NCBI GenBank assembly: GCA_016722575.1
Contig: JADKIY010000002.1
Coordinates: 136,734 to 200,733, forward strand
Direction: 5' to 3'
Length of the DNA: 64,000 nucleotides
DNA from: Elusimicrobiota bacterium
Lineage (GTDB): Bacteria; Elusimicrobiota; Elusimicrobia; FEN-1173
The notes below the pieces were generated by a model, which saw only the letters and a program-made list of their open reading frames with translations, ran no database searches and was not told where the DNA came from. Position numbers and translations under genes: made by a program. This document shows, piece by piece, positions 35,558-55,193 of the stretch (its first letter is position 1; each line of letters opens with the position of its first letter).

Positions 35558-35568
35558 GGATATTTAAT

Positions 35569-38013: not shown

Positions 38014-38056
38014 GGGTTGTCTCCTTAAAATCGTTTCCGGCGCCCGGCGGGCGTCA

Positions 38057-40522
38057 CTACCACGTCAGTTGAATTTCCGTTTCAGCGCCTTCGGCTTCAA
38101 AATCGAGTCGGGCCTCGCCCGCGCTCCAGGCGGCCGTCGATTTGCCGCCCGCCACCGACACGCGGGGCTTGGCCGGCAAAGCGATCCGGGCCTGGTATTT
38201 GGCCCCGGGCAGGGTGGCGAACACCAGCTTCGCCTTGCGCCCCCGCACCACGGCGTCCAGGACCTCGGCTGTAGCGTACACAAGACGGACGTTTCGGTCC
38301 AGCGGAATATTAAGAGGCAAAACGGCCCCCGAAAGCGGCGCCAAGGGGAGGGTGCCGGTGGCCGGCAACCGCCACCGCCCGTTCCCCCCGGGCCGGGGCA
38401 GGGACACCGCGGCTTTCCGCTCGGTGAAATGGTAATTGAACACAAAAAGAAAACCGTATTCGCCGTTGCACCGAAGCACGGCCTGAATGTCCCAGGGCTC
38501 GCAAACCACCTGGGGCGTCAACCCGAGGCCCTTGGCCCAATCCCGCACCCAGTCCCGAAAGTGATCGAACACGTGGGGCAGGCCGAACCCGACCACCAAC
38601 GCTTCGCCCCGACCCACGCGGGTGTGGACGGCCCCCGCGCCCGAAGGCAGTTCCGCCCGGGTTCGCGCCTTGGCCTCGGTGGCGTAGGTTTGAATGGGTC
38701 CCTGCACCCATTGGTCGGCCCCGTCTTCCTTGAACAAATTGCCCTTTTGCTCCCCCGTCACCGAGAGGCCCAGGGCGTCCGCCAGAGTGGTGTCGGCTTC
38801 GCCCCGCAAGTCTTTCACGGGCAGTCGGGGGCCCAAAATTAATTTTCCCCCTTCGCGGACATAGGCCGCCAACTTGGCCTGGGTGTCGTGGTCCATGAAA
38901 TCCAAGGAATAAACCCAAAGGCTCCCGTGCTTCCGCAGAACGTCCAGGGAGGATCGCTGAACGTCCGTGTAGTCGTAGCTGAAGCCCGCCAGTTGCACCA
39001 GCCGGGCCACGCCGTCGTACCACAGATTTGTCCGTTGACCTTCGATTCCGTCCACCCAGGGGCCGGCCCAATACTCCGTGCCGTAATAGGGCAGATAAAA
39101 ACCGAAAGTGGTGTCCACGGCCTTCTTGGTCTGGGCCAGGAAGGGCCCGGCCCACTTTAAGAAACGGCCGAAATCCTTTAATGGTTCGAGGTGGGGGCGC
39201 GTTTCCCCCTTGGGGCCGATGGGCGCCTGCCAGTCGTGGTAGGTGCCGAAGGCGCCGTAGCCCGGGGGGTTCACGCCGCCCGCGAACATGTAGGCGTTCA
39301 ACCCGGAAAGGCCCTGCCCGACGGAACTCTTCACGTTGAGCGCCACCTGCTGGGGATAAAGTCGGGGCCGGTCCCGCATGATGCCCGTTTGAAGTTCCGC
39401 GCACACGACCGGGAGGGGCGACTCCGCCAGGGGCTCGAAGGGCGGCAGGGCGGGCAGGCGCCCTTCGGCGGCGGGGTTCAATTTCTCAACCGCGCCGTTC
39501 ACCGCCACCGCCCCCAGCATGCGCGTCACTTCGGTGGTCAGGGCCACGTCGTGGAAATTTTCAAAATCCAAGTGCCGCATCTGGTAAGCCCCGCCGAAAA
39601 TCAGCTTCGGCGTCAAAATCGGGAAGTCCCGGAACATGGAGGTGGTCATGGGCGCCCAGTTGCCGCGGCCCCGAATGTCGTAGTCGTAGAACTGCGGGAT
39701 GTTGCAGAAGAGCGGAACGTCCACGCCCAGGTCCCGGGCCCGCCGGGCGAGCAAGTGGAAATAGGTGGCGTAGTACCGGCGGTAGAAAAGCGACCAGTCC
39801 AAGTGAATGACCACCCGGTCCGCGTCGGCGTCTTCGCTCTTGGGCTGGTGCACTTCGTCGAACGAGGCGTAGGCGGTTTTGTAGGCGTCGTTCAAAGCTT
39901 GAATCGTTCCGTGGGTTTCCTGAATGAACCGGCGGTACATGCGGTTCACGTGGTCTTTGTGGTCGGCGCCCTTTTGAAGCCAGTGGACCATGGCGACTTC
40001 GTTGCAAAGCTGAACGGCCAACACGTTGCCGCCCTTGGTGGTCTGCCGACGGACGATGTCCGGCAACAGGGCGTCGTACCACCGGGCCACTTTTTCCTGG
40101 AACACGGGGTGCAGGTAGGACAAAATCGTCACGTGGGGCAGGTTGCCGACGTTCCGACGACCGGTCACGAACACGTCGGGGTAGCCGGAAAGCAGCCAGC
40201 CGGGGATGCCTTCGTTCACCAACTCCGCGTTGGACACGGGCCCCACCCGAGCGGAGACGAACAAGCCCAGGGACTTGGCCGTATCCAGGAAGGTCATCAC
40301 GTCCCGCTCGGGGTGCGTTTCCCCCGTCAGGTCGATGCGCCCTTCCTCCGGCTCGTGCCAGCTCCAGGGGATGTAGGTGCTCACGGTGTTGAAACCGGCG
40401 TTTTTAAGCGCCGTCAACCGCGCGCGCCATTGGGTTTTGGGGATGCGGAAATAGTGCACTTCGCCCGAGTAGAGGAAAAACGGGCGGCCGTTGAGGGAGA
40501 AATAACCGTTGGTCAATTCCAT
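38057..40522 (-). CDS. GH35 beta-galactosidase (no signal peptide)
   Basis: 821 aa, 'GYFSLNGRPFFLYSGEVHYFRIP', 'NTVSTYIPWSWHEP' GH35 catalytic-domain motifs. Confidence 0.9.
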   Translation of the reverse strand: MELTNGYFSLNGRPFFLYSGEVHYFRIPKTQWRARLTALKNAGFNTVSTYIPWSWHEPEEGRIDLTGETHPERDVMTFLDTAKSLGLFVSARVGPVSNAELVNEGIPGWLLSGYPDVFVTGRRNVGNLPHVTILSYLHPVFQEKVARWYDALLPDIVRRQTTKGGNVLAVQLCNEVAMVHWLQKGADHKDHVNRMYRRFIQETHGTIQALNDAYKTAYASFDEVHQPKSEDADADRVVIHLDWSLFYRRYYATYFHLLARRARDLGVDVPLFCNIPQFYDYDIRGRGNWAPMTTSMFRDFPILTPKLIFGGAYQMRHLDFENFHDVALTTEVTRMLGAVAVNGAVEKLNPAAEGRLPALPPFEPLAESPLPVVCAELQTGIMRDRPRLYPQQVALNVKSSVGQGLSGLNAYMFAGGVNPPGYGAFGTYHDWQAPIGPKGETRPHLEPLKDFGRFLKWAGPFLAQTKKAVDTTFGFYLPYYGTEYWAGPWVDGIEGQRTNLWYDGVARLVQLAGFSYDYTDVQRSSLDVLRKHGSLWVYSLDFMDHDTQAKLAAYVREGGKLILGPRLPVKDLRGEADTTLADALGLSVTGEQKGNLFKEDGADQWVQGPIQTYATEAKARTRAELPSGAGAVHTRVGRGEALVVGFGLPHVFDHFRDWVRDWAKGLGLTPQVVCEPWDIQAVLRCNGEYGFLFVFNYHFTERKAAVSLPRPGGNGRWRLPATGTLPLAPLSGAVLPLNIPLDRNVRLVYATAEVLDAVVRGRKAKLVFATLPGAKYQARIALPAKPRVSVAGGKSTAAWSAGEARLDFEAEGAETEIQLTW

Positions 40523-40598
40523 TGTATGAGCGTGTCCGCGGTTAGAAGAGCGATTACACTAGCAAAGAATTTCACAGGGCGGAAGGCGGTTTGTTACA

Positions 40599-41366
40599 AT
40601 GGGAGGCATGAAGCGAATCGGCAAATTGGCCGGAACCGGCGCATTGATTTTCACCTTGGCTTACCTCGGGTTTACCCCCGCGGGCCTGGGGTTTTTCGGC
40701 CAGCCCGCCCGGGTCCCCACCCTCCGTGAATTGACGACGGCCAACCCCGCCACGACCGCCTATATGGAAATTCGGCGACGGGAGGCGAACGCTCTGGGCA
40801 AAAAATGGAATCCGCGTTTTACCTGGGTTCCCTTGACCCGCGTATCCCCCGCCCTGGTGAACGCCGTTTTGGCCGCCGAAGACAGCACTTTCTATCATCA
40901 CCACGGCATCGAATGGGGCCTCACCCGGGACGCGCTTTTGGAAAACCTTCGGCGGGGCGAAAAGGCCCGGGGCGCCAGCACCATCACCCAACAGGTCGCC
41001 CGCAACCTGTATCTCTCCCCGCAAAAAAGTTATTTGCGAAAAATCCGTGAAATGATTTTGGCCCAGCGCCTGGAACAAACCCTGACCAAGCGCCGGATCC
41101 TGGAAATTTACCTCAACATCGCGGAGTGGGGCCCCGGCGTTTTCGGCGCCGAAGCCGCCTCCCAGACTTATTTCGGCAAACCGGCCTCGGCGCTCACCTG
41201 GGACGAGGCCGTCTCTCTAACGGCGGTACTCCCCAGCCCCCGCCGCCACGCGGCCAACGGCGACCGCCCTTGGATCAACGTCCGTCGGAAGTGGGTGTGG
41301 TCCCGGCTCGTTGAAACCCGCCGCTACACGCCGCCGCCCGAAGACCCGCCCGTTCCCGCCCCGTGA
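40599..41366 (+). CDS. mtgA: Monofunctional biosynthetic peptidoglycan transglycosylase (GT51)
   Basis: 255 aa, 'EDSTFYHHHGIEW', 'GASTITQQVARNLYL'. Confidence 0.85.
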   Translation: MGGMKRIGKLAGTGALIFTLAYLGFTPAGLGFFGQPARVPTLRELTTANPATTAYMEIRRREANALGKKWNPRFTWVPLTRVSPALVNAVLAAEDSTFYHHHGIEWGLTRDALLENLRRGEKARGASTITQQVARNLYLSPQKSYLRKIREMILAQRLEQTLTKRRILEIYLNIAEWGPGVFGAEAASQTYFGKPASALTWDEAVSLTAVLPSPRRHAANGDRPWINVRRKWVWSRLVETRRYTPPPEDPPVPAP

Positions 41367-42778
41367 TTCCCACGGCCGCCCTCAAATACCTCACCGTTAT
41401 TGACGCCGGCCTGGCGATCCTGTTCTCCATCGTCGTCATTTCCAAAAAACGAGACCCCGCCGTCACCCTGGCCTGGGTTTTGGGATTTTTCTTCCTCCCG
41501 CTTTTGGGCGTCCTCCTTTACGTTTTCTTCGGCTATCAACGAATCCGCCTTCGTCGACGCCAAACGCCGAACCCCAGCGGCCGCCTACCGTCCATTCGGG
41601 CCCCCGACGCTTTGGCCGCCGTGCCGGAACCCCTGCGCGGCGTGGCGGATTTGGCCGATCGTTTGACCGAATACCCCGTCACCGCCGGAAACCGGGTGGA
41701 TGTTTTCACCCGGGCCGACGACACCGACCACGCCCTGACCGCCGCCATCCGGGGCGCCCGGCGGCACATCCACATGTGCTATTACATTTTCGAGCCCGAT
41801 TCCGACGGGATTTTCTTCCGGGACCTCCTGGCCGAAAAAGCCCGGGAAGGCGTTCAGGTGCGCCTGCTCATGGACGCCGTGGGTTCCTTCAGCGTGGACG
41901 ACGACTTTCTGGCGCCCCTCCGCCGCGCGGGAGCCAGGGTGGATTTCTTCGGCCCCTTCGGCACCTTCCGCCGCCCCTGGGCCTTCAACTTCCGCAATCA
42001 CCGGAAATTGACCGTCATCGACGGCCACGTGGGCTTTTTGGGCAGTCAGAACATCGGCCACCATTTTTGGCGGGTGGGGTCCCGGCGCATCGCCTGGCGG
42101 GAAACCGACGTGCGGTTGGAGGGCGCGGCGGTGGAGGAACTGCAAACCGTCTTCGCCGAAGACTGGCACTTCGTCACCCGGGAAAACCTGGCCGGGGAGG
42201 ACTTTTTCCCTCCGCCGGCGCCCGTCGCGGCGGGTTCGACGCTGGTCCAGGCCCTGCCCACGGGCCCCGACCGGAAAGAAAACGCCCTCGCCTTTATTTT
42301 CGTCGAAGCCCTGCACACGGCCCGGGAACGGGTGACCATCACGACGCCCTATTTCATCCCCACCCCGGCGGTGGTCCTGGCCCTGGAAGGCGCGGCCCGG
42401 CGGGGCGTCCGCGTGGACCTGCTGGTCCCCCGGCGCACGGACCACCCGGTGGTCACCTGGGCGGGCCGGAGCTATTTCGACGAGTTTCTGGAAAGCGGCG
42501 TGCGGATCTTCGAATACGGCGAGGCCTTCCTGCACTCCAAGGTGGTGACGGTGGACGGCCGGCTGGCCCTCCTGGGTTCCGCCAACATGGACACCCGGAG
42601 CTTTCTAATCAACTTTGAATTGAGTCTTCTGGTTTACGATGAAAAAGTCGTGGAACGTCTGGTGCATACTTTCGATAAAACGGCGGGCCAGTCCGTGGCC
42701 TTCGCCGCCAGGGCCGCTCGGGCCCCCGTCCGTCATTTCGCCGAAGGCCTCTGCCGGGTCCTTTCCCCCCTTCTTTAA
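41363..42778 (+). CDS. cls: Cardiolipin synthase (PLD superfamily, two HKD motifs)
   Basis: GTG start overlapping the mtgA stop (GTGA at 41363-41366). 'NHRKLTVIDG' and 'FLHSKVVTVDGRLALLGSANMD'. Confidence 0.9.
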   Translation: MIPTAALKYLTVIDAGLAILFSIVVISKKRDPAVTLAWVLGFFFLPLLGVLLYVFFGYQRIRLRRRQTPNPSGRLPSIRAPDALAAVPEPLRGVADLADRLTEYPVTAGNRVDVFTRADDTDHALTAAIRGARRHIHMCYYIFEPDSDGIFFRDLLAEKAREGVQVRLLMDAVGSFSVDDDFLAPLRRAGARVDFFGPFGTFRRPWAFNFRNHRKLTVIDGHVGFLGSQNIGHHFWRVGSRRIAWRETDVRLEGAAVEELQTVFAEDWHFVTRENLAGEDFFPPPAPVAAGSTLVQALPTGPDRKENALAFIFVEALHTARERVTITTPYFIPTPAVVLALEGAARRGVRVDLLVPRRTDHPVVTWAGRSYFDEFLESGVRIFEYGEAFLHSKVVTVDGRLALLGSANMDTRSFLINFELSLLVYDEKVVERLVHTFDKTAGQSVAFAARAARAPVRHFAEGLCRVLSPLL

Positions 42779-42917
42779 CCCTTAAAAGCCGGTTGATTGG
42801 GCTTGTCCGTCCCAGGGCTTTATTTTTTTTCGTCATCCCGGTACGGGCATAACCGGTATCCAGACCGACTCAAACCGCAGGACCCTGGATCCCGGCTAAA
42901 ATCAGGCCGGGATGACG
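42779..42917. repeat. Palindromic repeat element, copy A (139-nt unit; ~87-nt structured core 42831..42917 bounded by 11-bp inverted repeat CGTCATCCCGG/CCGGGATGACG)
   Basis: Direct repeat of copy B (~85% identity over the unit, including the upstream 'cccttaa..gattggg.ttgtccgtccc..ttttttt' segment). Nested inverted repeats 'atccag..ctggat' and 'atcccggc..gccgggat'. Confidence 0.8.
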
Positions 42918-42960
42918 CACTTATCGACGGGAAATGCCCTTACCAAAACCGCATTGGCTT

Positions 42961-43093
42961 TAACCCTTAAGATTGGGTTTGTCCGTCCCCTATGCATTTT
43001 TTTCTCGTCATCCCGGTATGGGTCTAACCGGGATCCAGACCGAGGCAAACCGCAGGACCCCTGGATCCCGGCTAAACAAACGCCGGGATGACG
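42961..43093. repeat. Palindromic repeat element, copy B
   Basis: '...ctcgtcatcccggtatgggtctaaccgggatccagaccgaggcaaaccgcaggacccctggatcccggctaaacaaacgccgggatgacg'. Confidence 0.8.
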
Positions 43094-43128
43094 ACCTTGA
43101 CTGAATTAAACAGGGGATTTATCCCGGG

Positions 43129-43156
43129 TCCTCCTCCCCCCTTGAGGGGGAGGAGG
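43129..43156. terminator. GC-rich perfect hairpin (CCTCCTCCCCC-cttga-GGGGGAGGAGG) plus second small hairpin (CTCTTT..AAAGAG) at the 3' end of the acyltransferase gene; probable terminator
   Basis: 11-bp perfect stem seen directly. The minus-strand reading is followed by 'tgtttaatt' (weak U-tract). Confidence 0.4.
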
Positions 43157-43179
43157 GAGGAGGGGGGTGCCTCTTTCCG

Positions 43180-44280
43180 TCAAAGAGAATCCGCCGCGGG
43201 CCTTCGAAAGATTCGTAAACCGCCAAAAGCTCGATCGAAAAAGAACCCCAATTTTTTTCGCAGAGTCGAACGAAAACGGTTTTCGATCAAGCCATGGACC
43301 GCGACAGCGGCCAATATCAACGGAACGGTCAACAGCGCCCGCCCCCCCGGGGTTTTTCCCCAGGGGAACAAAGCGAACAAAACGTACCCCACGTCCTGGT
43401 GAAGGAGATAGAGCGGATAGGAAATCGCTCCCAGGGCCACGAACCACCGGCCCAAGGGCCGCGTGCCGATGGGTTGGTGCCAGAATTGGTCCGTCAGCGC
43501 CCCGAAAACCAATAGAACCCCGCAAAGGAACCCGAATCCGACGGACAAGCCGTCCATGGGCAGGGACGGCGCCTTTTCGCCCCCCATCCAGGGCAGTGCG
43601 GCCAACGCGCCCAGGGCGGCCAGCCATTGCCAACCGCCCCGGCCGGGATTTCCGTGGCGTATTTCCCAACCGGCCATTCCGAGGAGGAAAAGCGGCAGGT
43701 AGGGAAAAAAATCCGTCCAGTAGCCGGGCCCGCCGAACCGACCCAAAAGCGCGTTGCCCAATAAACTCACGCCAAAAATCACCCAGAAGGGTTTGAGGCG
43801 TGGAAGGGCGAAGAAAGCCAGGCCGATCAGCCAATAGAATTTAAACTCCACCAGGAGGGACCAATAGGCCCCGTCGACAAAGGCGTAATGGTTGACCGGC
43901 GCGCCCCAGAGGCGCGGCAAAAGAGTCGGAAGGTTGATGGCGGGAAGGAAGACCATGGTTTTGGCCATGTCCATAAAGCCGTGGATCCGGTCCGGCCGGG
44001 CCAGGGGAAAGCCCCGCTCCACCGCCGTCGTTAAAACGGCGCACACCCAGAGGGCGGGCAGGAGCCGGGCGTAGCGCTTGGCCAAAAAGTCGCCCAGGGA
44101 GGCGCTTCCCCGCACGCTCGGCAACATGCAGTAGCCGCTGATCATGAAAAAAAGGGCCACCCCGTAAACGCCGATACGGCCCACGGGGTCGGCCAGTTCG
44201 AAGTGATAAAAGAGGACCGCGGCGATGCTGAGCCCCCGCAGGGCGTCGATGGCGCCTTCGCGGGATTTGTCGTCGGTCAA
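43180..44280 (-). CDS. Acyltransferase family 3 (OafA/YrhL-like membrane O-acyltransferase)
   Basis: 366 aa, 'AIDALRGLSIAAVLFYHF', multi-TM, 'YPLYLLHQ'. TTG start in the track. Confidence 0.8.
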   Translation of the reverse strand: MTDDKSREGAIDALRGLSIAAVLFYHFELADPVGRIGVYGVALFFMISGYCMLPSVRGSASLGDFLAKRYARLLPALWVCAVLTTAVERGFPLARPDRIHGFMDMAKTMVFLPAINLPTLLPRLWGAPVNHYAFVDGAYWSLLVEFKFYWLIGLAFFALPRLKPFWVIFGVSLLGNALLGRFGGPGYWTDFFPYLPLFLLGMAGWEIRHGNPGRGGWQWLAALGALAALPWMGGEKAPSLPMDGLSVGFGFLCGVLLVFGALTDQFWHQPIGTRPLGRWFVALGAISYPLYLLHQDVGYVLFALFPWGKTPGGRALLTVPLILAAVAVHGLIENRFRSTLRKKLGFFFDRAFGGLRIFRRPAADSL

Positions 44281-44290
44281 GGGCGGGGGT

Positions 44291-45100
44291 TCAACGTTTT
44301 GTTTTCATCCGGGAATAGCGATCCATCAGGCGCTGTTCCTCGGCCGTCAAACTGTCGATGCCGTCGGCGGAAATCTTTTCCAAGATCCGGTCCACTTCCT
44401 GGCCCAGCTCGTGAAACTGGACGACTTCTTTTTTTTCCTTCCGCTGGATGGACCAATCCCCCACCCGCCCCAGGGCCCGGCGGAGGTCGTAGCGCAGCGT
44501 TCCGGATTTAAGATACAGAAAACCCGTCAACATGCCGCCCAGGTGGGCGATGTTGGCCAGGCGCGAGTGGGTCCCCGCGAAGCCCATGAGGAATTCAATG
44601 GCCGCGAAGAGGATCACCGCCTGCCAGGCCCGCATGGGGATCATGAAATAGATGTAAAAGACGGACATGGGGGACATCATGGCGAAGGCCACCAAGAGGC
44701 CGTAAATGGCGCCCGAGGCCCCGATGACCGGGAAAATGGAGTTGGGCTCCAGCAGAAGGTTAAAGGCCGCCGCCCCGACCCCGCAGAGGAAGTAATAAAA
44801 CAGGAACGACCTGGTCCCCCATCGGTTCTCCAGTTCCCGCCCCAGGGACCAGAGCATGAAGAGGTTGAAGAGCAGATGGAAAAATCCGCCGTGCAGAAAC
44901 AAATAAGTGACCGGCTGCCACAGCCAATACTCGTGCACCACCATCGTCGGGGTGAGCCCGAAATAGCGAATTAGGGATGGGCCGCCCGCCGCTTCCAGGA
45001 ACCATTGGAGGAGGAAAACAATTCCCGTGGCGGTGAGCAAAAACTTCACCGCCGGCGGCAGGGACCGGTAGGAGAGGGGTTGGTTAAATACCATTTTCAC
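44291..45100 (-). CDS. Rhomboid-family intramembrane serine protease (GlpG-like) with C-terminal soluble extension
   Basis: 'GASGAIYGLL' (catalytic Ser) and 'AHLGGMLTG' (catalytic His), 6 TM segments. Confidence 0.8.
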   Translation of the reverse strand: MKMVFNQPLSYRSLPPAVKFLLTATGIVFLLQWFLEAAGGPSLIRYFGLTPTMVVHEYWLWQPVTYLFLHGGFFHLLFNLFMLWSLGRELENRWGTRSFLFYYFLCGVGAAAFNLLLEPNSIFPVIGASGAIYGLLVAFAMMSPMSVFYIYFMIPMRAWQAVILFAAIEFLMGFAGTHSRLANIAHLGGMLTGFLYLKSGTLRYDLRRALGRVGDWSIQRKEKKEVVQFHELGQEVDRILEKISADGIDSLTAEEQRLMDRYSRMKTKR

Positions 45101-45111
45101 TCATTTCAAAT

Positions 45112-45201
45112 CGTCGTCCCGGCGTGCCTGTAGCCGGGACCCAGAACGACGTGAGGACGGACCACCCCTTGGATCCCGGCCAAAAACCCGCCGGGATGAC
45201 G
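45112..45201. repeat. Palindromic repeat element, copy C (core only)
   Basis: 'cgtcGtcccggcgtgcctgtagccgggacccagaacgacgtgaggacggaccaccccttggatcccggccaaaaacccgccgggatgacg'. Same terminal inverted repeat and 'ctggatcccggc.aaaa' block. The A>G change keeps pairing as G.U only on the plus-strand RNA. Confidence 0.7.
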
Positions 45202-45289
45202 AAAAGATGGGTCAACCGGTCTCTCACCGGCATGACTCGGCAACGTTGTCCCTTGAATCGAACTGGTATTTTTTTCGGTGCGGTTGGGC

Positions 45290-45317
45290 TTGATCAATTA
45301 ATTTTCCGTGCTATAAT
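45290..45317 (+). promoter_or_regulatory. sigma70 promoter TTGATC-N16-(TGc)TATAAT with extended -10, upstream of the fiber-like gene
   Basis: 'TTGATCaattaattttccgtgcTATAAT'. GGAGG SD 7 nt before the ATG at 45381. Confidence 0.5.
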
Positions 45318-45380
45318 CAAAAAGATTTACATCCCGTTCCTGACCTCAAAGTATTATCAACAGCGATCCAGGAGGCCCGT

Positions 45381-46862
45381 CATGGGCGTTAAAAAATCAA
45401 TTTCACGGACATGGTATATCTTTCTCGCGGCCCTGACGAGCGCCGCCATTGCCCACGCGGGGGTTCCCACCAAGATCACCTACCAAGGACGGGTTTTCAA
45501 ATCCGGCGTCGCCGTGACGGGATCCCACACGCTGAATTTAACCGTCGTTGACGCAAACAATACAGCCGACCGTCGAAGCATCGCGCCCATTAATGTTACC
45601 TTGCCCGCGAACGGGGAATTTAGCGTGACCTTTGATCTCCCCCGGATTCGAATGGGACACCAAAGACCCGCAATTGGAAGTGAAGTCGACGGTGATTTAT
45701 TGACCCCCTGGATGATTTCGGCGTCACCCCCTACAGCCTCTTGGCCTCCAGCGTGGCCGCCAACGGTGTTTCAACGCGCTCTTTGCAGGACGGCTCCGTG
45801 ACGAACGTCAAAGTTTCGACGGTGTCCGCCTCGAAAATCATTCTACCCGGCGGCTCCACCCCCATTTCCACCTGGCAATTGGGCGCCGGCAATTTCATCG
45901 ACGCTTCCAAAGTCGCCCTTCCCGGCAGCACCGCTACCGTCGCCTCCTGGCAATACGGCGCTACCGGCTTCATCGATGTCGCCAAAGTGACTGGCACCAT
46001 CCCCACGACTCCCGTGGCCCACGCCACCTCCCACGGACTGGTCGGCACAGACCCATTGAACGGTCTTTCCCCACTACAAATTTCAGGCTCTGCCGTGGTT
46101 TTGCGTTCCACATCGTCCCAAACCATTCAGCCCCAGGTCGGAAGTGATGTGGTTCCCTTAGTTATTAAACCCAACGCCAGCGTTCCTGCAGGGAGCATAA
46201 ACGCTCTTGAGGTATTTACGAATGCCTCGACCACGTCCGTGACAATTCGCGGGGATGGCTTAATGACGGTAAAGGGAACATTGACAGCCAACGGGCCAGT
46301 GAACGCCACCAACGGGCTGACAATTACCGGGAGCCTAAACGTCAGCACGATTGTGCCGAGCGGGAATTTGAATATTAGCGGGCGAGTTCGCGATAATTAC
46401 GGCTATCTCGTCCCCCCCGGAACGATTGTGGCTTTTGCCGGAACGACGGCGCCATCCGGTTGGCTATTATGCGATGGCTCCACAAAAGACAAGTCAATCC
46501 AGCCCGAGTTAAGTGAGTTAAAATTAGTCCTGGGGTCCACCTATGGGGCAGAAACTGCAAATACATTCGTTCTGCCAAATCTAAAAGGACGCGTTCCGAT
46601 GGGATCCGGAATTGGCGCCAGCGCGACCAATTGGACGATTGGAATAAGCACTGGATCGGAAACATACACGCTTTCGATAGCTCAAATCCCACCGCACCAT
46701 CATGGTGGAGTTGTTATTAGCCATACGACAGATGAATTTTCCGCCAATAATAGCCAAGCAATTAAAACAATAACCTACGGCAATACTCAGGATGAAGGCG
46801 GTGGTCAGCCCCATCCCATCATGCAACCCTCCTTGGTCGTAAATTACATAATTAAGTACTGA
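45381..46862 (+). CDS. Secreted phage tail-fibre-like protein with C-terminal tail-collar domain (PF07484-type), interrupted by an apparent -1 frameshift at a C5 tract (45704-45708); low-GC gene
   Basis: Frame 1 45381..45801 ('MGVKKSISRTWYIFLAALTSAAIAHA' signal peptide...). Frame 0 45696..46862 ('FIDPLDDFGVTPYSLLASSVAANG...GTIVAFAGTTAPSGWLLCDGS...LPNLKGRVPMGSG...' collar domain). One extra C in 'tgaCCCCCtgg' restores a single ~493-aa ORF. Confidence 0.65.
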
Positions 46863-46888
46863 TTTATTTTTTAAAAGGGCAATTCAAA

Positions 46889-47485
46889 ATGAAAAGGTTT
46901 CTTCCACTATTGCTTGCCGCAATCAATCTCATTTCCCCCCTCAAGGCCGCCGATCAATCCGTTCAGTCGACGATAAATCGGATGGCCAACGAGTTAACGG
47001 CCACTTACCGATCCAAATCACCCAACGCGAAGCGAGCGCGCCTGGCCATTCTGGACCTTCAAGCCAGCGAAGATTTAAACAAACAACGTATTGGACCGGC
47101 GCTCACAGACATGATCACCAACGAATTCGTCAACAAATCCGATTTCATCGTCCTTGAGCGTGAACTTTTCGGCAAAATCATGGAAGAACACCAACTCCTA
47201 GCCAACTTCGGCGACGTTTCAAACGCCATCAAGGTAGGAAAGGTTTTGGGGGCTGAGGTGGTCTTGCTTGGGAGTGTCACCCAATTCAAAAGCGACCTTC
47301 GAATCAACCTGCGCTTGGTAAACACCGAAACAACCGAAATACTTAGCACCACATCCGGCATGGTTTCATTAAGCGAATTTTCCAAAGAAAATCCAATTTT
47401 CCCAGGATTTGTCCCTATCACTCAAAAAATCGGCTTATTTGCGGTCTTTGAATATCGTTTCCTGGCAAAACGAACACACCAATAA
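46889..47485 (+). CDS. Periplasmic/lipoprotein-type protein with CsgG/TolB-N-like fold (secreted, 198 aa); low-GC gene
   Basis: Signal peptide 'MKRFLPLLLAAINLISPLKA'. 'RLAILDLQA...LTDMITNEFVNKSDFIVLEREL...ILEEHQL...GKVLGAEVVLLGSVTQF...LRINLRLVNTETTEIL' matches the CsgG/FlgO-like pattern. Confidence 0.6.
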   Translation: MKRFLPLLLAAINLISPLKAADQSVQSTINRMANELTATYRSKSPNAKRARLAILDLQASEDLNKQRIGPALTDMITNEFVNKSDFIVLERELFGKIMEEHQLLANFGDVSNAIKVGKVLGAEVVLLGSVTQFKSDLRINLRLVNTETTEILSTTSGMVSLSEFSKENPIFPGFVPITQKIGLFAVFEYRFLAKRTHQ

Positions 47486-48059
47486 TAACCTCAGAAGGTG
47501 CAAGAATTAATGAAATTAATGTTTCAAATTTCTCTTTAGGTTATACAGGCTTGGGGATTCGTTACTTCCCAACAAGGATTATTTTTATCGAAGGATCAGT
47601 CCTCCAAGTAAGCGGCAACAATAACACCAGCAAATCGTTCAATATTTCGGGAAATTCAGGGATAATTGGCAGTTTTCAGGCAAAGGGCAAAGCTTTACGG
47701 TTCAGATTTGGAACAAAAAGAAAACATACTGAAAATCTTTGTTTCCTCCTCTCTCGGCTTTTCGATTCAAAAACTTGACCTTGCGACTGGCGTGGTTCTG
47801 CGAATGGAATCCCAAACCTATCCAAAACAGTCCCTAATTTCAGCATTGGTGCAACCATGAATATTCAACAAAGACTCGCGATTGGCTTGCAAATTCGATG
47901 CGATCTAAGGAAACTTGATGTCCAAAGAAACAGGCTCAAATCAAAAAGTATATTCCCTCAACCCGTTAGTCATTTCCCCTCAACTCACGTTCTATTTCTA
48001 GTCTGAAACAATAATTGCCCGACAAATCCCTCACCCCCATCTTTCTATTCGCCGCGTTT

Positions 48060-51000
48060 ATGTTGGGCACGGCGCGGTTTGCGCCGCGGTGGGCTTTGCG
48101 GCGGCCGGCCCTGGTGGGGGTTCTTACGGCGGCGCTCGTTGTTTGGGGCATCGTTTCCATGCGGGGGCTCCCGGTGGAGCTCATGCCCAACGCGGCGTCG
48201 GACACCGTCACCGTCACGGTGGGCGTCCGGGGCGGCATGTCCCCCACGGACGTGGAAGCCCTCATCGTCCGCCCCCTCGAAGACGGGTTGGGGGACCTCC
48301 CCCGCCTTAAAACCCTGATCTCCAGCGCCAAAAAAGACCGGGGCGTGGTCACCCTCGATTTCCACCCCGGGGTCGACATGAAGCGCGTCACCGCCGAGGT
48401 GAACGAACGCGTGGACCGCGCCCTGGCCCGCCTGCCCGCCGAAATCGAAAAACCCGTTATCGCCCACTTTGAGGAAAACGACGCCCCCGTCTACATCGCC
48501 GCGGTCCTAAGCGACCGCCTCTCGCCCGAGAGCGTCCGCAAAATCATCGACGACAACATCAAAGACCACCTCCTTCGGACGCCCGGCGTGGCCAACGTGG
48601 AAATCGGCGGTGGGCGGGAAGGCAAGATCCTGGTGGAGCTCAACCGGGATCGCCTGGCCGCCTACGGCCTTTCCCCCCACCAAATCACCAGCCTCCTGGG
48701 CCGCCGGAACGTCGCCCTTCAAGTCGGAAGCGTCACCGGGGACGCCCGCGTGACCCCCGTGCGGCTCGTGGGCACCCTTAAAAACCTGGAGGATTTCCGA
48801 AAGGTCGTGGTGGCCCGGGACCCGTCGGGAGGCACCGTCCGGCTGGAAAACGTCGCCACCGTGACCGACAGCTACCTGGAACCGGAGAGCCTCTCCCGGT
48901 TGAACGGCCAGGCCGCCGTGTCGCTCTACGTTCAAAAAGAATCCTCCGCCAACACCCTGCGGGTCGTGCGTGACCTGGAAAAAGCCTGGGACAAAGCCTG
49001 GCGCAACCTGCCGGCCGGAACGCGGAAAGACCTTCGACACGTGGTCGTCTCCAACCAGGCCCTGGGGATATTGGCGGCGGTTGTTTCGGTTCGTGTGTCC
49101 CTGGCCTGCGGGATTCTGTTGATCCTCCTTTCCCTCTGCCTTGTTGAAAGCGAGCGCCTTTCCACCAAGCGCATGGCGGGCGTCGTCATGGGAATGCTAT
49201 TGGCGCTCATGTGCGTTACCGCCCTGCTTAAAATCAGCGACGCCCGCATGGAGCCCCTCTACTGGATACTTCTGGGGCTATTTCTCCTATTGGCTTTTTT
49301 CGACCCGGACATCCGGCCTGGGCTCATCGTGGCGGGCAGCATGCCCCTTTCGGCGCTTTTCTGCTTTCTGCTCTTCCAGGCCTGCGGGTTGACCCTGAAC
49401 GTCATGAGTCTCTTCGGCCTGGCCCTGGGGCTCGGCATGTTGGTGGACAACGCCACCGTGGTCTATGAACACATCAACGAACTCGGCCTCCCCCCGCCCG
49501 GCCCGGCCGCCCGGGAAGCGGCGCTCAAAGCCACGGAGGAAATGGTCATCCCCTTGATCGGCGGCACCGTCACCAACGCCATCGTTTTCGTTCCCTTTCT
49601 TTTTCTGTCCCGGGAAATCCAGTTGATGTACACCGACGTGGCGGCGGCCGTGGGGGCCTCCCTCTTCGCCTCCCTGGGAATTTCCTTAACGGCGGTTCCC
49701 CTACTGGCCTCGGGACTCATGCTTAAAGGCGCGCCGAAATGGCCGACGTTCCCGGGGCCATTCGAATCCCGGGCCAAAAAATGGGGCGAGGGCTTAAACA
49801 GGTTGGGGACGGTTTTGTGGGAGCGCGGTGCGGCCTTCTCAAAGCGCGCGATGGAGAGAGCCCGGGCCTTTTACGCCGCCCGACTTAAGCCCCGTTTCAA
49901 TTCACTGGCCGGGCACCATTCCCTGGCGGGTTTGCCGCCCTGGGCAGCGCTGGTTTTGTTTGTGGTGTTGTTTGCTGGGTTGTGGGCGCTCGGGGGCAAG
50001 ACGCCGGCCAAGATTTTCTTTCTGCTCACGGCCCTGGGGCTCACGGCGGCGGGCTTCGCGCTTTTCCGGGGTTTTGAGCGCCACTGGCCGCGCCTTTTTC
50101 ACCGTCGGGCGGAAACCCTGGCCGCGGCGCTCTTGCTGGCGGCGGCCGCCACGGCGGTGATTTTTAAGGCCACCGAACGGGACTTTCAAACCTCCGGGGA
50201 ATTGGACGAATTCGTCGTCTTTCTGGAACTCTCCTCGGGGGTCCGGCTGGAGGTGTCGAACGCGGTGGCGGCCGAGGTGGAAAAGATTTTGGACACGGAC
50301 CCGGAGGTGGCCCCCACCATCAAAACGGCCGTCAGCCGGGTGGAAGGTTGGTCCTCCAAAATTTACGTCACCCTCGTTCCCCGGGCCCAACGGCGATTGA
50401 GCGCCGAGCAGGTTCAGGACCTCCTTCGGGTGAAGCTCAAAGGCGTGGGGAGCGACAAGGACCCCAACGCCTTCGTCCACTTCTCCAGCCCCCGAACGGG
50501 GCAGGAAATCACCGTGGAAGTCCTGGGCCCCGACTACGGCGTCTTGGAACAGTTGGCCCAGCAAATTTGCGGCTCACTGGAAAAAATCCCCGGGCTTTCC
50601 GACGTTAAAATGCGCTACCGCCCCGGCCGGCCCGAGGTCTTGGCCGTGGTGGACCCCGACCGGGCGGCCCGGGCCGGCCTTTCCGCCGAGGCCGTGGCCG
50701 AAACCACCCACGCCCTGGTGCGGGGCCTTCGGGCCACCACCTTCCGCACGGGCGGCCGCCAGACGGAAACCATCGTCCGCCTCCGCCGGGAAGATTCCGA
50801 AAACCTGAACGCACTGGCGGACCTGCCCCTGGGCGGCCCCTCGGGCCGCACCCTGCGGCTGACGGAGGTGGCGGACCTCACCATGTCCAAGATGCCCAAC
50901 GAGATTTTCCGGGAAAACAAAGCCCGGCTCATTCAGATCACCGCCAACCGCACGCGCCTCTCCCTGGGCCGGGCCGCCGAGGAAATCCAGGCCGCCCTGG

Positions 51001-51617
51001 ACGCCATGAATTTCCCCCTGGACTACCACGCCGCCCTGGACCGGGAAGTGACGGACATGGCGCGGTCCATCAACCAACTGACAGCGGGCATCTTGGTCAT
51101 GATTTTTCTTGTGTACGTGGTGCTGGTGGTTCTCTTTGAATCCCTGGTGGAACCCTTCATCATCCTAAGCGCCGTCCCTCTCTGCCTGATCGGCGTGGCG
51201 GGCGGGTTGGTCTTTTTCGGCCTTCCTTTAAGCACCGGGGTGCTGGTGGGGGTCATCATGTTGGCCGGGGTGGTGGTCAATAACGCCATTATGCTTTTAG
51301 ACCATCTCAACAACTACACCGACCGGCACGAGCCCCTGGCCGACCGGCTAAAAAAGTCCGTTTTGGCCCGCATGCGGCCTATTTTCCTGACTGCGGGAAG
51401 CGCCGTTTTGGGTTTTCTACCCATGATGCTGGACACCTCCGAAAGCGGCGTTCTGTGGCGGCCATTGGCTGTGACGCTCGTTTTCGGGTTGATTTTCTCT
51501 ACTGTTTTGACACTTTACGTCACCCCCGCCTTGACCCACTTCCTATTAAGGGACATCCCCCAATGGCTGGCCAGACGACGGTTTCTAGCCAAAATAGCCC
51601 CCAACCCCGCCGCCTAG
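48060..51617 (+). CDS. RND-family efflux transporter permease (AcrB/HAE-type), 1,185 aa from ATG (track TTG start at 48015)
   Basis: 12-TM RND architecture with two large periplasmic loops, 'GLALGLGMLVDNATVV', 'AILVMIFLVYVVLVVLFES'. No adjacent membrane-fusion-protein or OMF gene. Confidence 0.85.
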   Translation: MLGTARFAPRWALRRPALVGVLTAALVVWGIVSMRGLPVELMPNAASDTVTVTVGVRGGMSPTDVEALIVRPLEDGLGDLPRLKTLISSAKKDRGVVTLDFHPGVDMKRVTAEVNERVDRALARLPAEIEKPVIAHFEENDAPVYIAAVLSDRLSPESVRKIIDDNIKDHLLRTPGVANVEIGGGREGKILVELNRDRLAAYGLSPHQITSLLGRRNVALQVGSVTGDARVTPVRLVGTLKNLEDFRKVVVARDPSGGTVRLENVATVTDSYLEPESLSRLNGQAAVSLYVQKESSANTLRVVRDLEKAWDKAWRNLPAGTRKDLRHVVVSNQALGILAAVVSVRVSLACGILLILLSLCLVESERLSTKRMAGVVMGMLLALMCVTALLKISDARMEPLYWILLGLFLLLAFFDPDIRPGLIVAGSMPLSALFCFLLFQACGLTLNVMSLFGLALGLGMLVDNATVVYEHINELGLPPPGPAAREAALKATEEMVIPLIGGTVTNAIVFVPFLFLSREIQLMYTDVAAAVGASLFASLGISLTAVPLLASGLMLKGAPKWPTFPGPFESRAKKWGEGLNRLGTVLWERGAAFSKRAMERARAFYAARLKPRFNSLAGHHSLAGLPPWAALVLFVVLFAGLWALGGKTPAKIFFLLTALGLTAAGFALFRGFERHWPRLFHRRAETLAAALLLAAAATAVIFKATERDFQTSGELDEFVVFLELSSGVRLEVSNAVAAEVEKILDTDPEVAPTIKTAVSRVEGWSSKIYVTLVPRAQRRLSAEQVQDLLRVKLKGVGSDKDPNAFVHFSSPRTGQEITVEVLGPDYGVLEQLAQQICGSLEKIPGLSDVKMRYRPGRPEVLAVVDPDRAARAGLSAEAVAETTHALVRGLRATTFRTGGRQTETIVRLRREDSENLNALADLPLGGPSGRTLRLTEVADLTMSKMPNEIFRENKARLIQITANRTRLSLGRAAEEIQAALDAMNFPLDYHAALDREVTDMARSINQLTAGILVMIFLVYVVLVVLFESLVEPFIILSAVPLCLIGVAGGLVFFGLPLSTGVLVGVIMLAGVVVNNAIMLLDHLNNYTDRHEPLADRLKKSVLARMRPIFLTAGSAVLGFLPMMLDTSESGVLWRPLAVTLVFGLIFSTVLTLYVTPALTHFLLRDIPQWLARRRFLAKIAPNPAA

Positions 51618-51688: not shown

Positions 51689-52285
51689 GTGAAACTCCGT
51701 CTCAAACTACTCTCCATCAGTATTTTAATTTCAGCCCCCCTCCGGGGCGAAATTCACGACCCGACCGGCTCCGGTCTGCGGGTGACGGACGTGGTGGGGT
51801 TCTCCGGTCAAATCATCTCAAGCACCACGAGCCTTCGATCCGCCTCCAGCATCGGCGTTCTTGGCTCCACCATTACTCTTCACGCCACCTCGGGACTCGA
51901 ACTGCGCACCGGACTTTGGGGCGGCGGGCCCTCGCTCAAATCGACTGCCCTCGAACAAACCATCATCTTTGGCGCGCCTCGAACCGCCCGCCTCGTGATC
52001 CCCCCGGGAGCCATCGCGCGGGACTACGCTGTCTTCACCGGCACCAGCCCCGCCACGGAGCCCTTGAACGCTTCCCCCGCTATTCTCCAAACCGCCACGC
52101 GCAATCTGGCGCGGGCCAGTTCCTACAGCAACCCGGCCAACGGCCGTTTGTGGGAAATCTACGTTCAAGACGATAACGGTATTAAGCAATCCGGCGCTCT
52201 CCTTCGCTCCGCAACGCTCACACTTCCCTTTGACGACGTCGACCAGGACGGGCACGTGGACGGCAGCGCGCCCCCGTTCGCGTGA
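51689..52285 (+). CDS. Secreted hypothetical protein (signal peptide); probably the N-terminal part of one ancestral gene with 52282..52734
   Basis: GTG start preceded by an extended -10 'gTGaTATACT'. 'MKLRLKLLSISILISAPLRGE'. Stop overlaps the next start (GTGA). Confidence 0.55.
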   Translation: MKLRLKLLSISILISAPLRGEIHDPTGSGLRVTDVVGFSGQIISSTTSLRSASSIGVLGSTITLHATSGLELRTGLWGGGPSLKSTALEQTIIFGAPRTARLVIPPGAIARDYAVFTGTSPATEPLNASPAILQTATRNLARASSYSNPANGRLWEIYVQDDNGIKQSGALLRSATLTLPFDDVDQDGHVDGSAPPFA

Positions 52286-52734
52286 AAACTCTTTCCATCT
52301 GGTGGCTAGACGAAGTCCATTCGCTGTGGGTCAAAGTCCCGAACCCGACGATCAACACTTCCAGCCAAACCGTCACGGCGCTCATTCCCCACTTTTCGGT
52401 CTACGCCGTCATGGGAGCGCCCTCCTTCGACCCCTCGGAATCCTTCGCCTTCCCCGTGCCCTGGCGGCCGGCGGGGCCCAACGCCGGAAGCGCGGCGGGC
52501 CAAACGGGCACCTTGGCGGGCGGCATCACCTTCACCAATTTGCCGGACGCCTGCACCATCCGCCTTTACACCCTATCGGGCGGGTTGATCCGGGAGATCA
52601 ACCACAGCGTGGGCCTCCAGGAAACCTGGGACGGCCGAAGCGCCGACGGCGAGAATGTCGCCAGCGGCACCTATGTCTGGGTCGTGTCCGCCAACGGCTC
52701 CAAGAAAACCGGCAAACTGGCGGTCATCCGATGA
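52282..52734 (+). CDS. Protein ending in a T9SS-type / FlgD-Ig-like C-terminal beta-sandwich sorting domain; lacks its own signal peptide
   Basis: C-terminus 'ITFTNLPDACTIRLYTLSGGLIREINHSVGLQETWDGRSADGENVASGTYVWVVSANGSKKTGKLAVIR' (Por_Secre_tail/FlgD_ig pattern). One extra C in the C5 tract 52271-52275 would fuse it in frame to 51689..52285. Confidence 0.6.
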   Translation: MKTLSIWWLDEVHSLWVKVPNPTINTSSQTVTALIPHFSVYAVMGAPSFDPSESFAFPVPWRPAGPNAGSAAGQTGTLAGGITFTNLPDACTIRLYTLSGGLIREINHSVGLQETWDGRSADGENVASGTYVWVVSANGSKKTGKLAVIR

Positions 52735-53891: not shown

Positions 53892-55129
53892 GCCGTTCCG
53901 CCGTTTTCGGCGCGGCGGCCCTCTTCCTTTTACCGTCGATCGCCCAAACCGCTCCCCCCGTTCCCGAGGCGGCCATCGCCCCGGCCAACGATCTCAAACA
54001 AATCCTGAAAACGGCCCGGCAATTGGAATTGAAGGGCGATTACCGCGCCGCCTGCCGGACCTACCTCTCCGCCCTCCCCGATCACGCCGCCGACCTTCGA
54101 ATCCAAACCGGTCTCAAGCGCGCCGCCGGCGCCCTGGCCCGGGACATGGACGCCCAACGGCAAAAAGCCACGGACCGCTACGTGCGCGACGCCCAAATGA
54201 GCGCCGACCGGTCCTACGCCTACCAGAAAAGCCAGCGGGACCGGGTCGTCAAAGCGAAACGGTTGATTTCGAAGGGCCAATACCTGGCCGCCTCGGACGC
54301 GCTGAACACGATATTGGAGGAATCTCCCGGCATGGACGAAGCCCGGGACCAGTTGGACCGCGCCACGCGGCTCATGGCGGGTCGGCTCAAGCGCGGCAAG
54401 TTTCCGACGGTGCAACACCAGGCGGTCTGGGAAGGACTTGTCTTTTACAATCGCGCGGATTTTGAATCCGCCGCCCGCTCCCTGCGCCTGGCCCTCAGCG
54501 CCGGTTCGATTCCGACCGATCTCGCGGACGCCCGGGTGGAAAATTACGCCGTGCTGGCCGAGAAGAAACAGGCCCTGGCCCTCTGGCGCCAGGAGCGGCA
54601 AATCCTCCTCCTCAAAGCCGAGAACGCCAAGAAAGACGGCGACCTGGCCGCGGCCAAGGCCTCCTACGAACGAATTTTGAATAAAGACCCCGGCGACGCC
54701 GACGCCCGAGCCGGCCTGGAAAACCTGGGCTCCGTCGTGAAAGCCGTCGAAAAAGCCGTGGTCAAAGAAGTGCGCCGCAAGGAAGTCCCCGACCTCCTGG
54801 CCAAGGGCACCATCGACATGGTCCACGAACGTTACACCGACGCCCTGGAATCTTTTCACGCCGTTTTGCAGTTGGAACCCGACAACGCCGAAGCCAAGGA
54901 ACAGATCAACGAAGTGCAGCGGCTCATGAAAGGGCGCAAGCTCTACGTCCCCCCCGTGAACGTCAAGAGCGCCGCCGACGATAAATACCGGGAAGGCCTC
55001 AAACTCTACGGCAACGAACAATATTCCGAAGCCCAGGCCGCCTTTGAAGAAGCCCTCCAAATCGACCCCAAGCACGACGACGCCCGCCAAGCTCTCAAAC
55101 GCTTAAAAGACCAAGCCAAGCAACCGTAA
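53888..55129 (+). CDS. Secreted tetratricopeptide-repeat protein
   Basis: GTG overlapping the PorV-like stop (GTGA). Signal peptide 'VSRSAVFGAAALFLLPSIAQTAPP'. Multiple TPR-like helical pairs, with a C-terminal 'YSEAQAAFEEALQIDPKHDDARQAL'. Confidence 0.7.
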   Translation: MSRSAVFGAAALFLLPSIAQTAPPVPEAAIAPANDLKQILKTARQLELKGDYRAACRTYLSALPDHAADLRIQTGLKRAAGALARDMDAQRQKATDRYVRDAQMSADRSYAYQKSQRDRVVKAKRLISKGQYLAASDALNTILEESPGMDEARDQLDRATRLMAGRLKRGKFPTVQHQAVWEGLVFYNRADFESAARSLRLALSAGSIPTDLADARVENYAVLAEKKQALALWRQERQILLLKAENAKKDGDLAAAKASYERILNKDPGDADARAGLENLGSVVKAVEKAVVKEVRRKEVPDLLAKGTIDMVHERYTDALESFHAVLQLEPDNAEAKEQINEVQRLMKGRKLYVPPVNVKSAADDKYREGLKLYGNEQYSEAQAAFEEALQIDPKHDDARQALKRLKDQAKQP

Positions 55130-55193
55130 ATCGGCTCCCGTTTTTCCCCGCCGTTTGGATGTAAAATCATTGGAAACTATCTGTTTTTACTGA

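Follow-up and report, generated by a model that had tools for sequence, protein, structure and literature searches.

A probable strain-variable pair of envelope-protein genes, with exchanged alleles and frameshifts in the assembly, in an Elusimicrobiota bacterium

Replacement-type flexible genomic islands are strain-variable surface loci, exemplified by O-antigen, flagellin, pilin and OmpA-loop alleles. A second described system with features relevant here is that of the Bdellovibrio mosaic adhesive trimer (MAT) fibres, surface-displayed, phage-like trimers that bear a signal peptide and combine a beta-rich N-domain with interchangeable tips (PMC10769870). Here, we analysed a window of 64,000 nucleotides (nt) from contig JADKIY010000002.1 of an Elusimicrobiota bacterium (GCA_016722575.1), in whose numbering all coordinates are given unless a relative's contig is named, and we focused on an islet of low G+C content located between a rhomboid protease gene and an RND efflux pump gene. 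The original prediction had seen in this islet a fibre-like gene, a CsgG-fold lipoprotein and about 520 nt of AT-rich non-coding DNA (47490–48010), bounded by a copy of a palindromic repeat, and had suggested horizontal acquisition or a decayed mobile insertion. We propose that 45382–48001 is a two-gene unit, probably an operon, and that both genes encode proteins of the cell envelope, probably exposed at the surface. The locus as a whole is, on balance, best explained as a strain-variable pair of surface genes whose alleles have been swapped between lineages, its frameshifts being most likely errors of the assembly.

Like the replacement-type islands, the locus has a fixed position, near-identical flanks and deeply divergent alleles; its G+C content is below that of the genome, the relations among its alleles disagree with those of the backbone, and its products would likewise be surface-exposed. 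It differs from them in comprising two genes only, each a mosaic of conserved and variable modules, and in its products, which are not glycan enzymes but a protein resembling tail fibres and an outer-membrane protein that is uncharacterised. The host differs as well, being an uncultured Elusimicrobia lineage from wastewater-type metagenomes. The two genes and the parts of the second one are listed below; throughout, L-numbers designate the contigs of relatives (short-read, from other samples) and P-numbers homologous proteins.

45382–46862, + strand: secreted tail-fibre-like gene, 493 amino acids once repaired, with three indels (intact homologues, ATG behind AGGAGG)
46889–48001, + strand: outer-membrane protein gene (the barrel gene), 370 amino acids once repaired, with four indel events (90% identity to P0126)
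46889–47485, + strand: 198-amino-acid open reading frame (ORF) MBL0349600.1 (IPP68_04405), the N-terminal half of the barrel gene, ended by a frameshift-induced stop (ORF and NCBI record)
47486–48001, + strand: the supposed AT-rich non-coding DNA, read here as beta-barrel coding sequence in alternating frames (homology to L009)

Judged by homology, the stretch 47486–48001 is coding, and the locus contains no non-coding remnant. Exact-protein look-ups of the 198-amino-acid product returned no record, and its closest relatives are all longer (319–379 amino acids), with an extra C-terminal domain ending in ...YF. The 520 nt that had been taken for non-coding DNA are colinear with the C-terminal half of intact 371-amino-acid homologues and lead to the same TFYF stop. 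L001 is colinear with the window over 46134–48075, without a break across the stretch taken for non-coding and as far as the start of the RND gene, and L009 shares 89% nucleotide identity with it over 47400–48020, reaching 97–98% over 47498–47700. Alignment to L009 (P0126), the best reference, places four indel events in the gene:

47461–47462, + strand: indel 1 of the barrel gene, one C missing (CC; L009 has CCC), in a CCTGG motif (alignment to L009)
47732–47736, + strand: indel 2, two bases missing (AAAAT; L009 and L003 have AAAAATT), which restores the frame (alignment)
47799–47800, + strand: indel 3, one G missing (CTGCG; L009 has TTGGCG; alignment to L009)
47922–47923, + strand: indel 4, one extra C (GTCC; L009 and L003 have GTC), which restores the frame to the stop (alignment)

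Across these events the frame leaves and returns twice, so that the stop codon at 47999–48001, preceded by ...TFYF as in the homologues, shares the frame of the start codon. Once repaired, the gene contains a single stop, the terminal one, against 8–9 in each of the other frames, and its product is 90% identical to the intact P0126 over 371 amino acids without gaps and retains all the family-invariant residues of our alignment A1. The ratio of non-synonymous to synonymous divergence (dN/dS) of 47486–48001 is 0.14 against L003 and 0.31 against L009. The same stretch could be thought to be an unrecognised RNA gene or a regulatory leader of the RND pump, given its richness in AT, its place just 5' of the RND start and the lack of a long ORF in the raw sequence. 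We give this possibility almost no credence: a scan of 44900–48200 found no Rfam match at E <= 1, in agreement with the earlier remark that no RNA gene was recognisable, conservation tracks the codon structure, and the stretch forms, in register, the C-terminal end of a protein family that has 207 cluster representatives at E <= 1e-10.

Members of this family, which is moderately widespread and has no curated name, are mostly 350–420 amino acids long and end in an invariant F. The protein of the window starts with a signal peptide (MKRFLPLLLAAINLISPLKA followed by ADQS, the junction reading ...SPLKA/ADQS), continues with an LpoB/TolB-N/CsgG-like periplasmic domain (to about 47400) and a linker, and finishes with a C-terminal barrel ending in TFYF. 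AlphaFold, run on P0126 with 30 family members, gave a model that has a predicted local distance difference test score (pLDDT) of 84.5 and consists of an alpha/beta domain (residues 25–167), a short linker and a beta-barrel (residues 180–370) whose strands mostly score above 90. Foldseek matched the N-domain to the C-domain of LpoB (TMt 0.72–0.79, root-mean-square deviation about 3 Å) and also to the N-domain of TolB, and the barrel to OmpA, OmpW and Ail (E 2.5e-8 to 1e-5). This fold, together with the terminal aromatic residue of the ...TFYF motif, invariant in alignment A1, is that of a small outer-membrane protein barrel; matches to the Pfam family OMP_b-brl were confined to distant family members, at or near the cut-off. 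On the predicted structure, the protein joins a periplasmic domain of LpoB/TolB-N type to an OmpA-like barrel; it shares a fold with CsgG and LpoB and is a member of neither.

The CsgG-fold lipoprotein of the original prediction was thus right as regards the CsgG-type fold, and wrong as regards the lipid anchor and any membership of CsgG itself. The 198-amino-acid ORF matches the Pfam profiles of CsgG, FlgO and LpoB, and the alpha/beta fold of the N-domain is that of CsgG, the curli secretion channel (PF03783, 54 bits), and of LpoB, the activator of PBP1B. Unlike in CsgG, however, the PF03783 match spans only positions 34–104 of the 210 in the profile, and there are no transmembrane hairpins and no lipobox; with the CsgG equivalog NF011731 the score is 15.7 bits, far below the 505 bits of its cut-off. 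Likewise, LpoB (TIGR02722) scores 16.9 bits against a cut-off of 110, and with this protein, too, only the fold is shared. Since the lipobox cysteine is missing, the barrel protein is not a lipoprotein; there is no Cys in the whole 198-amino-acid product, and the signal peptides of P0002, P0125 and P0126 are equally Cys-free. No curli gene (csgA/B/E/F) occurs near the barrel gene, whose neighbours are the rhomboid, fibre and RND genes, and the protein further differs from CsgG and LpoB in having a C-terminal barrel of its own. The small OmpA/OmpW/Ail-like barrel, the conserved periplasmic domain and the fast evolution of the barrel recall OmpA, from which the protein differs by its inverted order, with the periplasmic domain first and the barrel last, and by a periplasmic domain that is LpoB-like and not OmpA_C-like.

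The fibre-like nature of the first gene was confirmed, although the gene is longer than the open frame from which it had been recognised, being frameshifted. It starts with the ATG at 45382, with AGGAGG six bases upstream. The NCBI annotation covers only a piece of 354 amino acids (MBL0349599.1), the intact homologues P0005, P0006 and P0007 have 493–496 amino acids, and repair of three indels yields a frame of 493 amino acids without a stop. These indels were placed by protein-level homology, as the conserved sequence ...EFSVTFDLP/GFEWDTKDPQLEVK/VDGDLLTP/LDDFGVTPYS... can be followed only with three changes of frame (slashes). Together with the Collar domain of the protein, they are:

46419–46598, + strand: Phage Tail Collar domain (PF07484; score 63 bits, threshold 24)
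45639–45643, + strand: indel 1 of the fibre gene, one extra C in a C5 run, in a CCCGG motif (protein homology, ...FDLP/GFEWDT...)
45683–45685, + strand: indel 2, one base missing (AA/G; relatives have AAAG, 'EVKVD'; protein homology)
45704–45709, + strand: indel 3, loss of one base behind a C5 run, in a CCTGG motif (conserved ...TP(L)DDFGVTPYS...)

The domain order of the repaired protein is a signal peptide, the same as in L003, an N-terminal beta-sandwich, a stalk, the Collar domain and a C-terminal tip; the beta-sandwich (about 45466–45726) and the tip (about 46640–46862) are variable, and the stalk is conserved. Several features are those of T4 gp12 and of actinophage minor tail proteins. 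The score for PF07484 exceeds the gathering threshold, which places the protein in the Phage Tail Collar family, the last ~150 amino acids share 38–44% identity with minor tail proteins of Microbacterium and Arthrobacter phages, and phage tail fibres are the top fold matches in the PDB, for a model of low confidence. No phage match was found for the N-terminal ~340 amino acids. Unlike the tips of phage tail fibres, the fibre is encoded outside a prophage and has a Sec signal peptide. In the AlphaFold monomer, the beta-sandwich has a pLDDT of 66–85, and residues 110–340 fall below 50; the stalk would be an intertwined trimer, which a monomer model is unable to fold. By analogy, and from sequence and monomer model, the nearest described counterparts of the fibre appear to be the MAT fibres of Bdellovibrio, with which it shares the succession of signal peptide, beta-rich domain, stalk and interchangeable C-terminal tip. 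Residues 18–81 match NF053851 (Bdello_MAT_N) weakly, with 22 bits against a cut-off of 60, so that the fibre falls outside this family, its tip is a Collar domain, and the S74 chaperone-protease domain was not seen.

The two genes occupy the same place in the close relatives, between two conserved flanking genes:

44291–45100, - strand: rhomboid protease gene, the conserved left flank (PF01694, E 5e-32)
48015–51617, + strand: RND efflux pump gene, the conserved right flank (PF00873, E 1.6e-171)

In L003 and L004 the order is PLD, acyltransferase, rhomboid, a fibre of 496 amino acids, a barrel protein of 371 amino acids and RND, and the order rhomboid, fibre, barrel and RND recurs in L005, L009 and L010, both genes being intact in all five. 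These five contigs span the locus, L001, L008 and L013 cover it in part, and the statement on synteny extends to every close relative recovered that spans the site. The fibre gene adjoins the rhomboid gene in L003, L004, L005, L009 and L013, and the RND gene lies 3' of the barrel gene in L001, L003, L004, L008, L009 and L010. An alignment-based search of GTDB representatives (with a 5-sequence alignment) found no relative, and the same kind of search in JGI contigs gave three loci, one of them redundant. The more distant L014, whose rhomboid is 60% identical, has a different neighbourhood and is uninformative, since at that distance the neighbourhood is not conserved.

Within this fixed frame the genes themselves diverge. 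Over 35382–45381 the window is 99.6–100% identical to L003 without a single gap column, then identity drops to 55–92% in the islet and returns to 99% beyond 48087. Compared with L004, 17 of 4474 positions differ in the left flank and 567 of 2620 (22%) in 45382–48001, the first at 45450 and the last at 47995, and there are no gaps outside the islet. The divergence follows the modules: amino-acid identity to L003 is 93% for the fibre signal peptide, 52% for the N-domain, 93% for the stalk and 53% for the tip, and 97% for the periplasmic domain of the second gene as against 71% for its barrel. Even the conserved modules of the islet have a synonymous divergence (dS) of 0.2–0.6, versus 0.026 for the adjacent rhomboid gene. 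The phylogenies of genes and backbone are incongruent, the rhomboid dS being 0.026 to L003 and 0.68 to L009, and that of the barrel 1.4 to L003 and 0.25 to L009. There are at least five barrel alleles on one common N-domain (~87–97% identical), and the barrel of P0003 has no detectable similarity to the others. L005 and L009 pair near-identical fibre genes with different barrels, which indicates that the modules reassort independently. A chimeric consensus of the L003 and L001 barrel alleles was ruled out by 62 unique and 54 three-way-different columns; the barrel of the window is a distinct allele, closest to P0126/L009. A diversity-generating retroelement was also rejected, because no reverse transcriptase is nearby, bases other than adenine are also changed and the divergence affects entire modules.

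Near-identical flanks, divergent coding sequences and alleles that contradict the backbone argue that whole modules were exchanged by recombination. On these alignments the islet is a case of replacement at a fixed site and not of insertion, as in replacement-type hypervariable islets. The two-gene unit holds a constant position between the rhomboid and RND genes in close relatives, and we propose that lineages exchange divergent alleles of its modules with low G+C at third codon positions (GC3), namely the fibre N-domain, the fibre tip and the barrel. The exchange would proceed by homologous recombination, for which both the conserved flanks and the conserved modules inside the unit would serve as anchors. 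The driver could be frequency-dependent selection on the surface-exposed parts, for instance by phages or predators. In the 5' third of the RND gene (48560–49361) the window differs from L004 by about 4% (33 substitutions, no gaps), compared with 0.4% in the left flank; the pump gene, too, may be reached by recombination tracts or by the variability.

The low G+C content noted in the original prediction is real, 45001–48000 being the deepest dip of the window, with successive 1-kb bins of 0.556, 0.505 and 0.430 against 0.57–0.68 (about 0.63) in the others and values down to 0.38 in 300-nt windows at 47350–47800. In the islet GC3 ranges over 0.37–0.65, with 0.60 for the fibre gene (its tip 0.41) and 0.46 for the barrel gene (its barrel half 0.37), compared with 0.75–0.80 in the flanking acyltransferase, rhomboid and RND genes, so that the dip is more than an effect of amino-acid composition. 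All alleles of the islet share the low GC3. The low G+C content, the copy of the repeat just upstream and a RAYT-like transposase gene beside the locus in one relative (L007) would be compatible with an insertion that was acquired horizontally or is a decayed mobile element, that has the palindromic repeat as its boundary and that leaves a true non-coding AT-rich remnant. Such an insertion is nevertheless very improbable. The segment is syntenic in all close relatives spanning the site, an outcome that the original prediction itself had named as refuting its idea; no integrase or transposase was found at the site by Pfam profile search, nor any tRNA over 38–54 kb of the window; searches of phage and plasmid collections with the 2.8-kb islet by blastn gave no DNA match, and tblastn of the barrel protein against phages none either; and the supposed remnant is coding. 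What stands of the idea of horizontal acquisition is exchange in the form of allelic replacement.

The repeat, for its part, belongs to a separate event in the conserved flank:

45095–45282, strand not assigned: lineage-specific insertion of ~188 nt with REP/MITE-like repeat copy C (hairpin about 45111–45202; alignment)
45290–45317, + strand: promoter-like site, TTGATC, 16 nt, TG-n-TATAAT (extended -10; consensus matched at 10 of 12 positions)

Only the lineage of the window, L003 and L004 carries the insertion, which is absent from L005, L009 and L010, with ~13 nt in its place in L005 and L009. The stretch from the insertion to the fibre start codon is conserved in all lineages, and the -10 block of the promoter-like site is invariant in all four that were aligned. 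The repeat occurs in three copies of ~100 nt each, A (42823–42922), B (42998–43098) and C (45111–45206), with the core TCGTCATCCCGG...CCGGGATGACGA; copy C aligns with A and B and folds into a long nested hairpin (z = -3.4). From its structure and distribution, copy C is best described as a REP/MITE-like element, small and mobile, that inserted into the conserved flank. A copy of the repeat does lie at about 45111–45206, as had been predicted, and because it sits inside this ~188-nt insertion it does not mark an edge of the islet. In L007, a gene for a RAYT-like Y1 transposase (PF01797) occupies 1504–2190, between the barrel gene and the RND pump, and may be the mobiliser of REP-like repeats.

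The seven indel events in the two genes are all length changes of short homopolymers, five of them deletions; they are tightly clustered (three within 70 nt, four within 460 nt) and fall in the segments most divergent between alleles, with none in the conserved modules. Neither repaired gene contains a nonsense codon, and the out-of-frame stretches maintain the codon-position bias and have a dN/dS of 0.07 and 0.21 against L003 and of 0.30 and 0.40 against L009, the baseline between two intact barrel alleles being 0.08. CCNGG motifs make up 3.5% of the islet and contain three of the seven indels (P about 0.001 in a post-hoc binomial test), and R9.4 basecalling is known to err at methylated motifs. 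An eighth homopolymer frameshift at 52275, outside the islet (CCCCCG in the window, CCCCCGG in L008), splits a GC-rich FlgD_ig/CHU_C-like gene of 348 amino acids (51689–52734) into ORFs of 198 and 150 amino acids; the gene is intact in L008 and otherwise ~97% conserved, and this indel is likely an assembly error. The protein accessions, the locus tag and a sister Elusimicrobia metagenome-assembled genome (MAG), 'OdNE_18-Q3-R46-58_BATAC.493 tig...', fit a Danish activated-sludge MAG set assembled with CANU from R9.4.1 Nanopore reads, for which polishing comprised Racon, medaka (two rounds) and a single Illumina round of Racon with --include-unpolished (PMC8012365). Errors would persist where short-read polishing fails, and co-occurring strains would carry very different alleles in just these segments; reads from such alleles would be unable to map, leaving the consensus of the divergent segments unpolished. 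From this pattern, we think it rather likely that the seven indels are uncorrected Nanopore consensus errors, in which case both genes would be intact in the organism.

Several points weigh against this interpretation. We infer the membership of the genome in the Nanopore set from the identifiers and the sister MAG, and the indels were called on assembled sequences, not on reads. The fibre N-module has 41–58% nucleotide identity to every other allele, and it lacks an intact reference because no other assembly carries the exact allele of the window. The affected runs, of 2–3 bases, are short for Nanopore errors at good coverage, and the flanks of the same assembly are free of indels over more than 10 kb compared with short-read contigs, so that a special local cause must be assumed. 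Moreover, the dN/dS of the barrel to its closest allele (0.31) exceeds the intact baseline of 0.08, and several non-conservative changes at conserved glycines (GG>AT, G>R) are grouped close to the indels, a pattern that relaxed constraint would produce as well. The last four of these observations would fit real frameshifts instead, by which both surface genes were recently inactivated, for example through loss of a phage receptor or adhesin, with 47486–48001 as the remnant of a young pseudogene. The occurrence of seven frame-breaking indels in two adjacent genes with intact alleles elsewhere, and the absence from the window strain of a second fibre locus found in relatives, a hint of ongoing loss of surface fibres, point in the same direction.

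Real inactivation nonetheless seems to us possible rather than probable. One inactivating hit suffices, and seven would be unexpected in a young pseudogene. About 860 repaired codons contain no nonsense codon in AT-rich DNA whose other frames hold 8–9 stops per 180 codons. All family-invariant residues are retained, the indels are clustered in hypervariable segments only, and a similar homopolymer frameshift affects the unrelated conserved gene at 52275. With seven events the frame is disrupted, as in a pseudogene; the dN/dS of 0.07–0.4 extends above the baseline of 0.08 and stays far from 1. The genes can be called decayed, as the original prediction had it, in the sense that both are frameshifted in the assembly, and not in that of a non-coding remnant.

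The frameshifts could also be functional, if both genes were switched on and off at their C and A runs, be it by phase variation or by programmed ribosomal frameshifting, and the position of the indels in homopolymers of genes for surface proteins, with three C5 runs within 100 nt of the fibre gene, would agree with this. The runs are only 1–6 nt long, and the lengths usual for slipped-strand switching are far above this. In addition, three shifts in one gene and four in the other would have to occur simultaneously, and the intact alleles have no long tracts at the sites of the indels. Switching was discarded on account of the short runs, and in our estimate its likelihood is slight.

The pairing of a fibre gene with a gene for a CsgG-like protein had been considered unusual in the original prediction. 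It is found in every member of this Elusimicrobia clade, including L002 and L007, and it does not extend to P0127 and P0128, the two distant barrel-family proteins with a readable gene context, whose neighbours are unrelated (among them glyA, SUKH and a toxin-antitoxin pair); a family-wide association was rejected on these two cases. The second fibre locus of the relatives, too, has no barrel partner. Outside the clade, functional coupling is unsupported, which also counts against the proposed unit, and coupling is therefore possible and unproven; shared selection on surface-exposed proteins alone may account for the co-location. A bolder view is that fibre and barrel protein would form one surface organelle, in which, as in the MAT system, the barrel would anchor or export an adhesin tipped with a phage-receptor-binding module, the modules being shuffled among Elusimicrobia lineages to retarget or hide interactions with other cells or with phages. 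We hold this view to be doubtful; were it true, the frameshifts might record a real loss of receptor in this strain.

The second, paralogous fibre gene follows a TPR gene in relatives (2583–4211 in L006, 9064–9762 in L008), and the corresponding site of the window (55107–55160) contains 52 nt only. Its product P0008, of 542 amino acids, has the same stalk and a different tip without a Collar domain, and P0007 resembles a chimera in which the N-terminus of P0008 is joined to a collar tip. In L002, whose barrel allele is P0003, the barrel gene is followed not by the RND pump but by a gene (1140–1676) for a signal-peptide protein of at least 179 amino acids. Farther along the window, 56000–64000 contains many diverged YD/RHS-type repeat units (consensus ...TACGACGCCCAGGGCCG...) in families of direct repeats, which points to a gene for a large RHS-repeat protein.

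Our results bear first on the annotation of this genome, in which MBL0349599.1 and MBL0349600.1 are truncated fragments of proteins of 493 and 370 amino acids and the apparent intergenic region is coding; on the interpretation favoured here, the locus would be a concrete case of indels in a long-read MAG creating false 'non-coding islets'. The findings open no long-standing question. They provide a clean example of the replacement of surface-protein modules at the strain level in an uncultured phylum and, in this respect, a further case of a hypervariable islet of surface-protein genes of the replacement type. The parts most worth following are the uncharacterised outer-membrane family that combines an LpoB-like domain with a barrel, and its clade-specific pairing with a MAT-like, tail-fibre-like putative adhesin.

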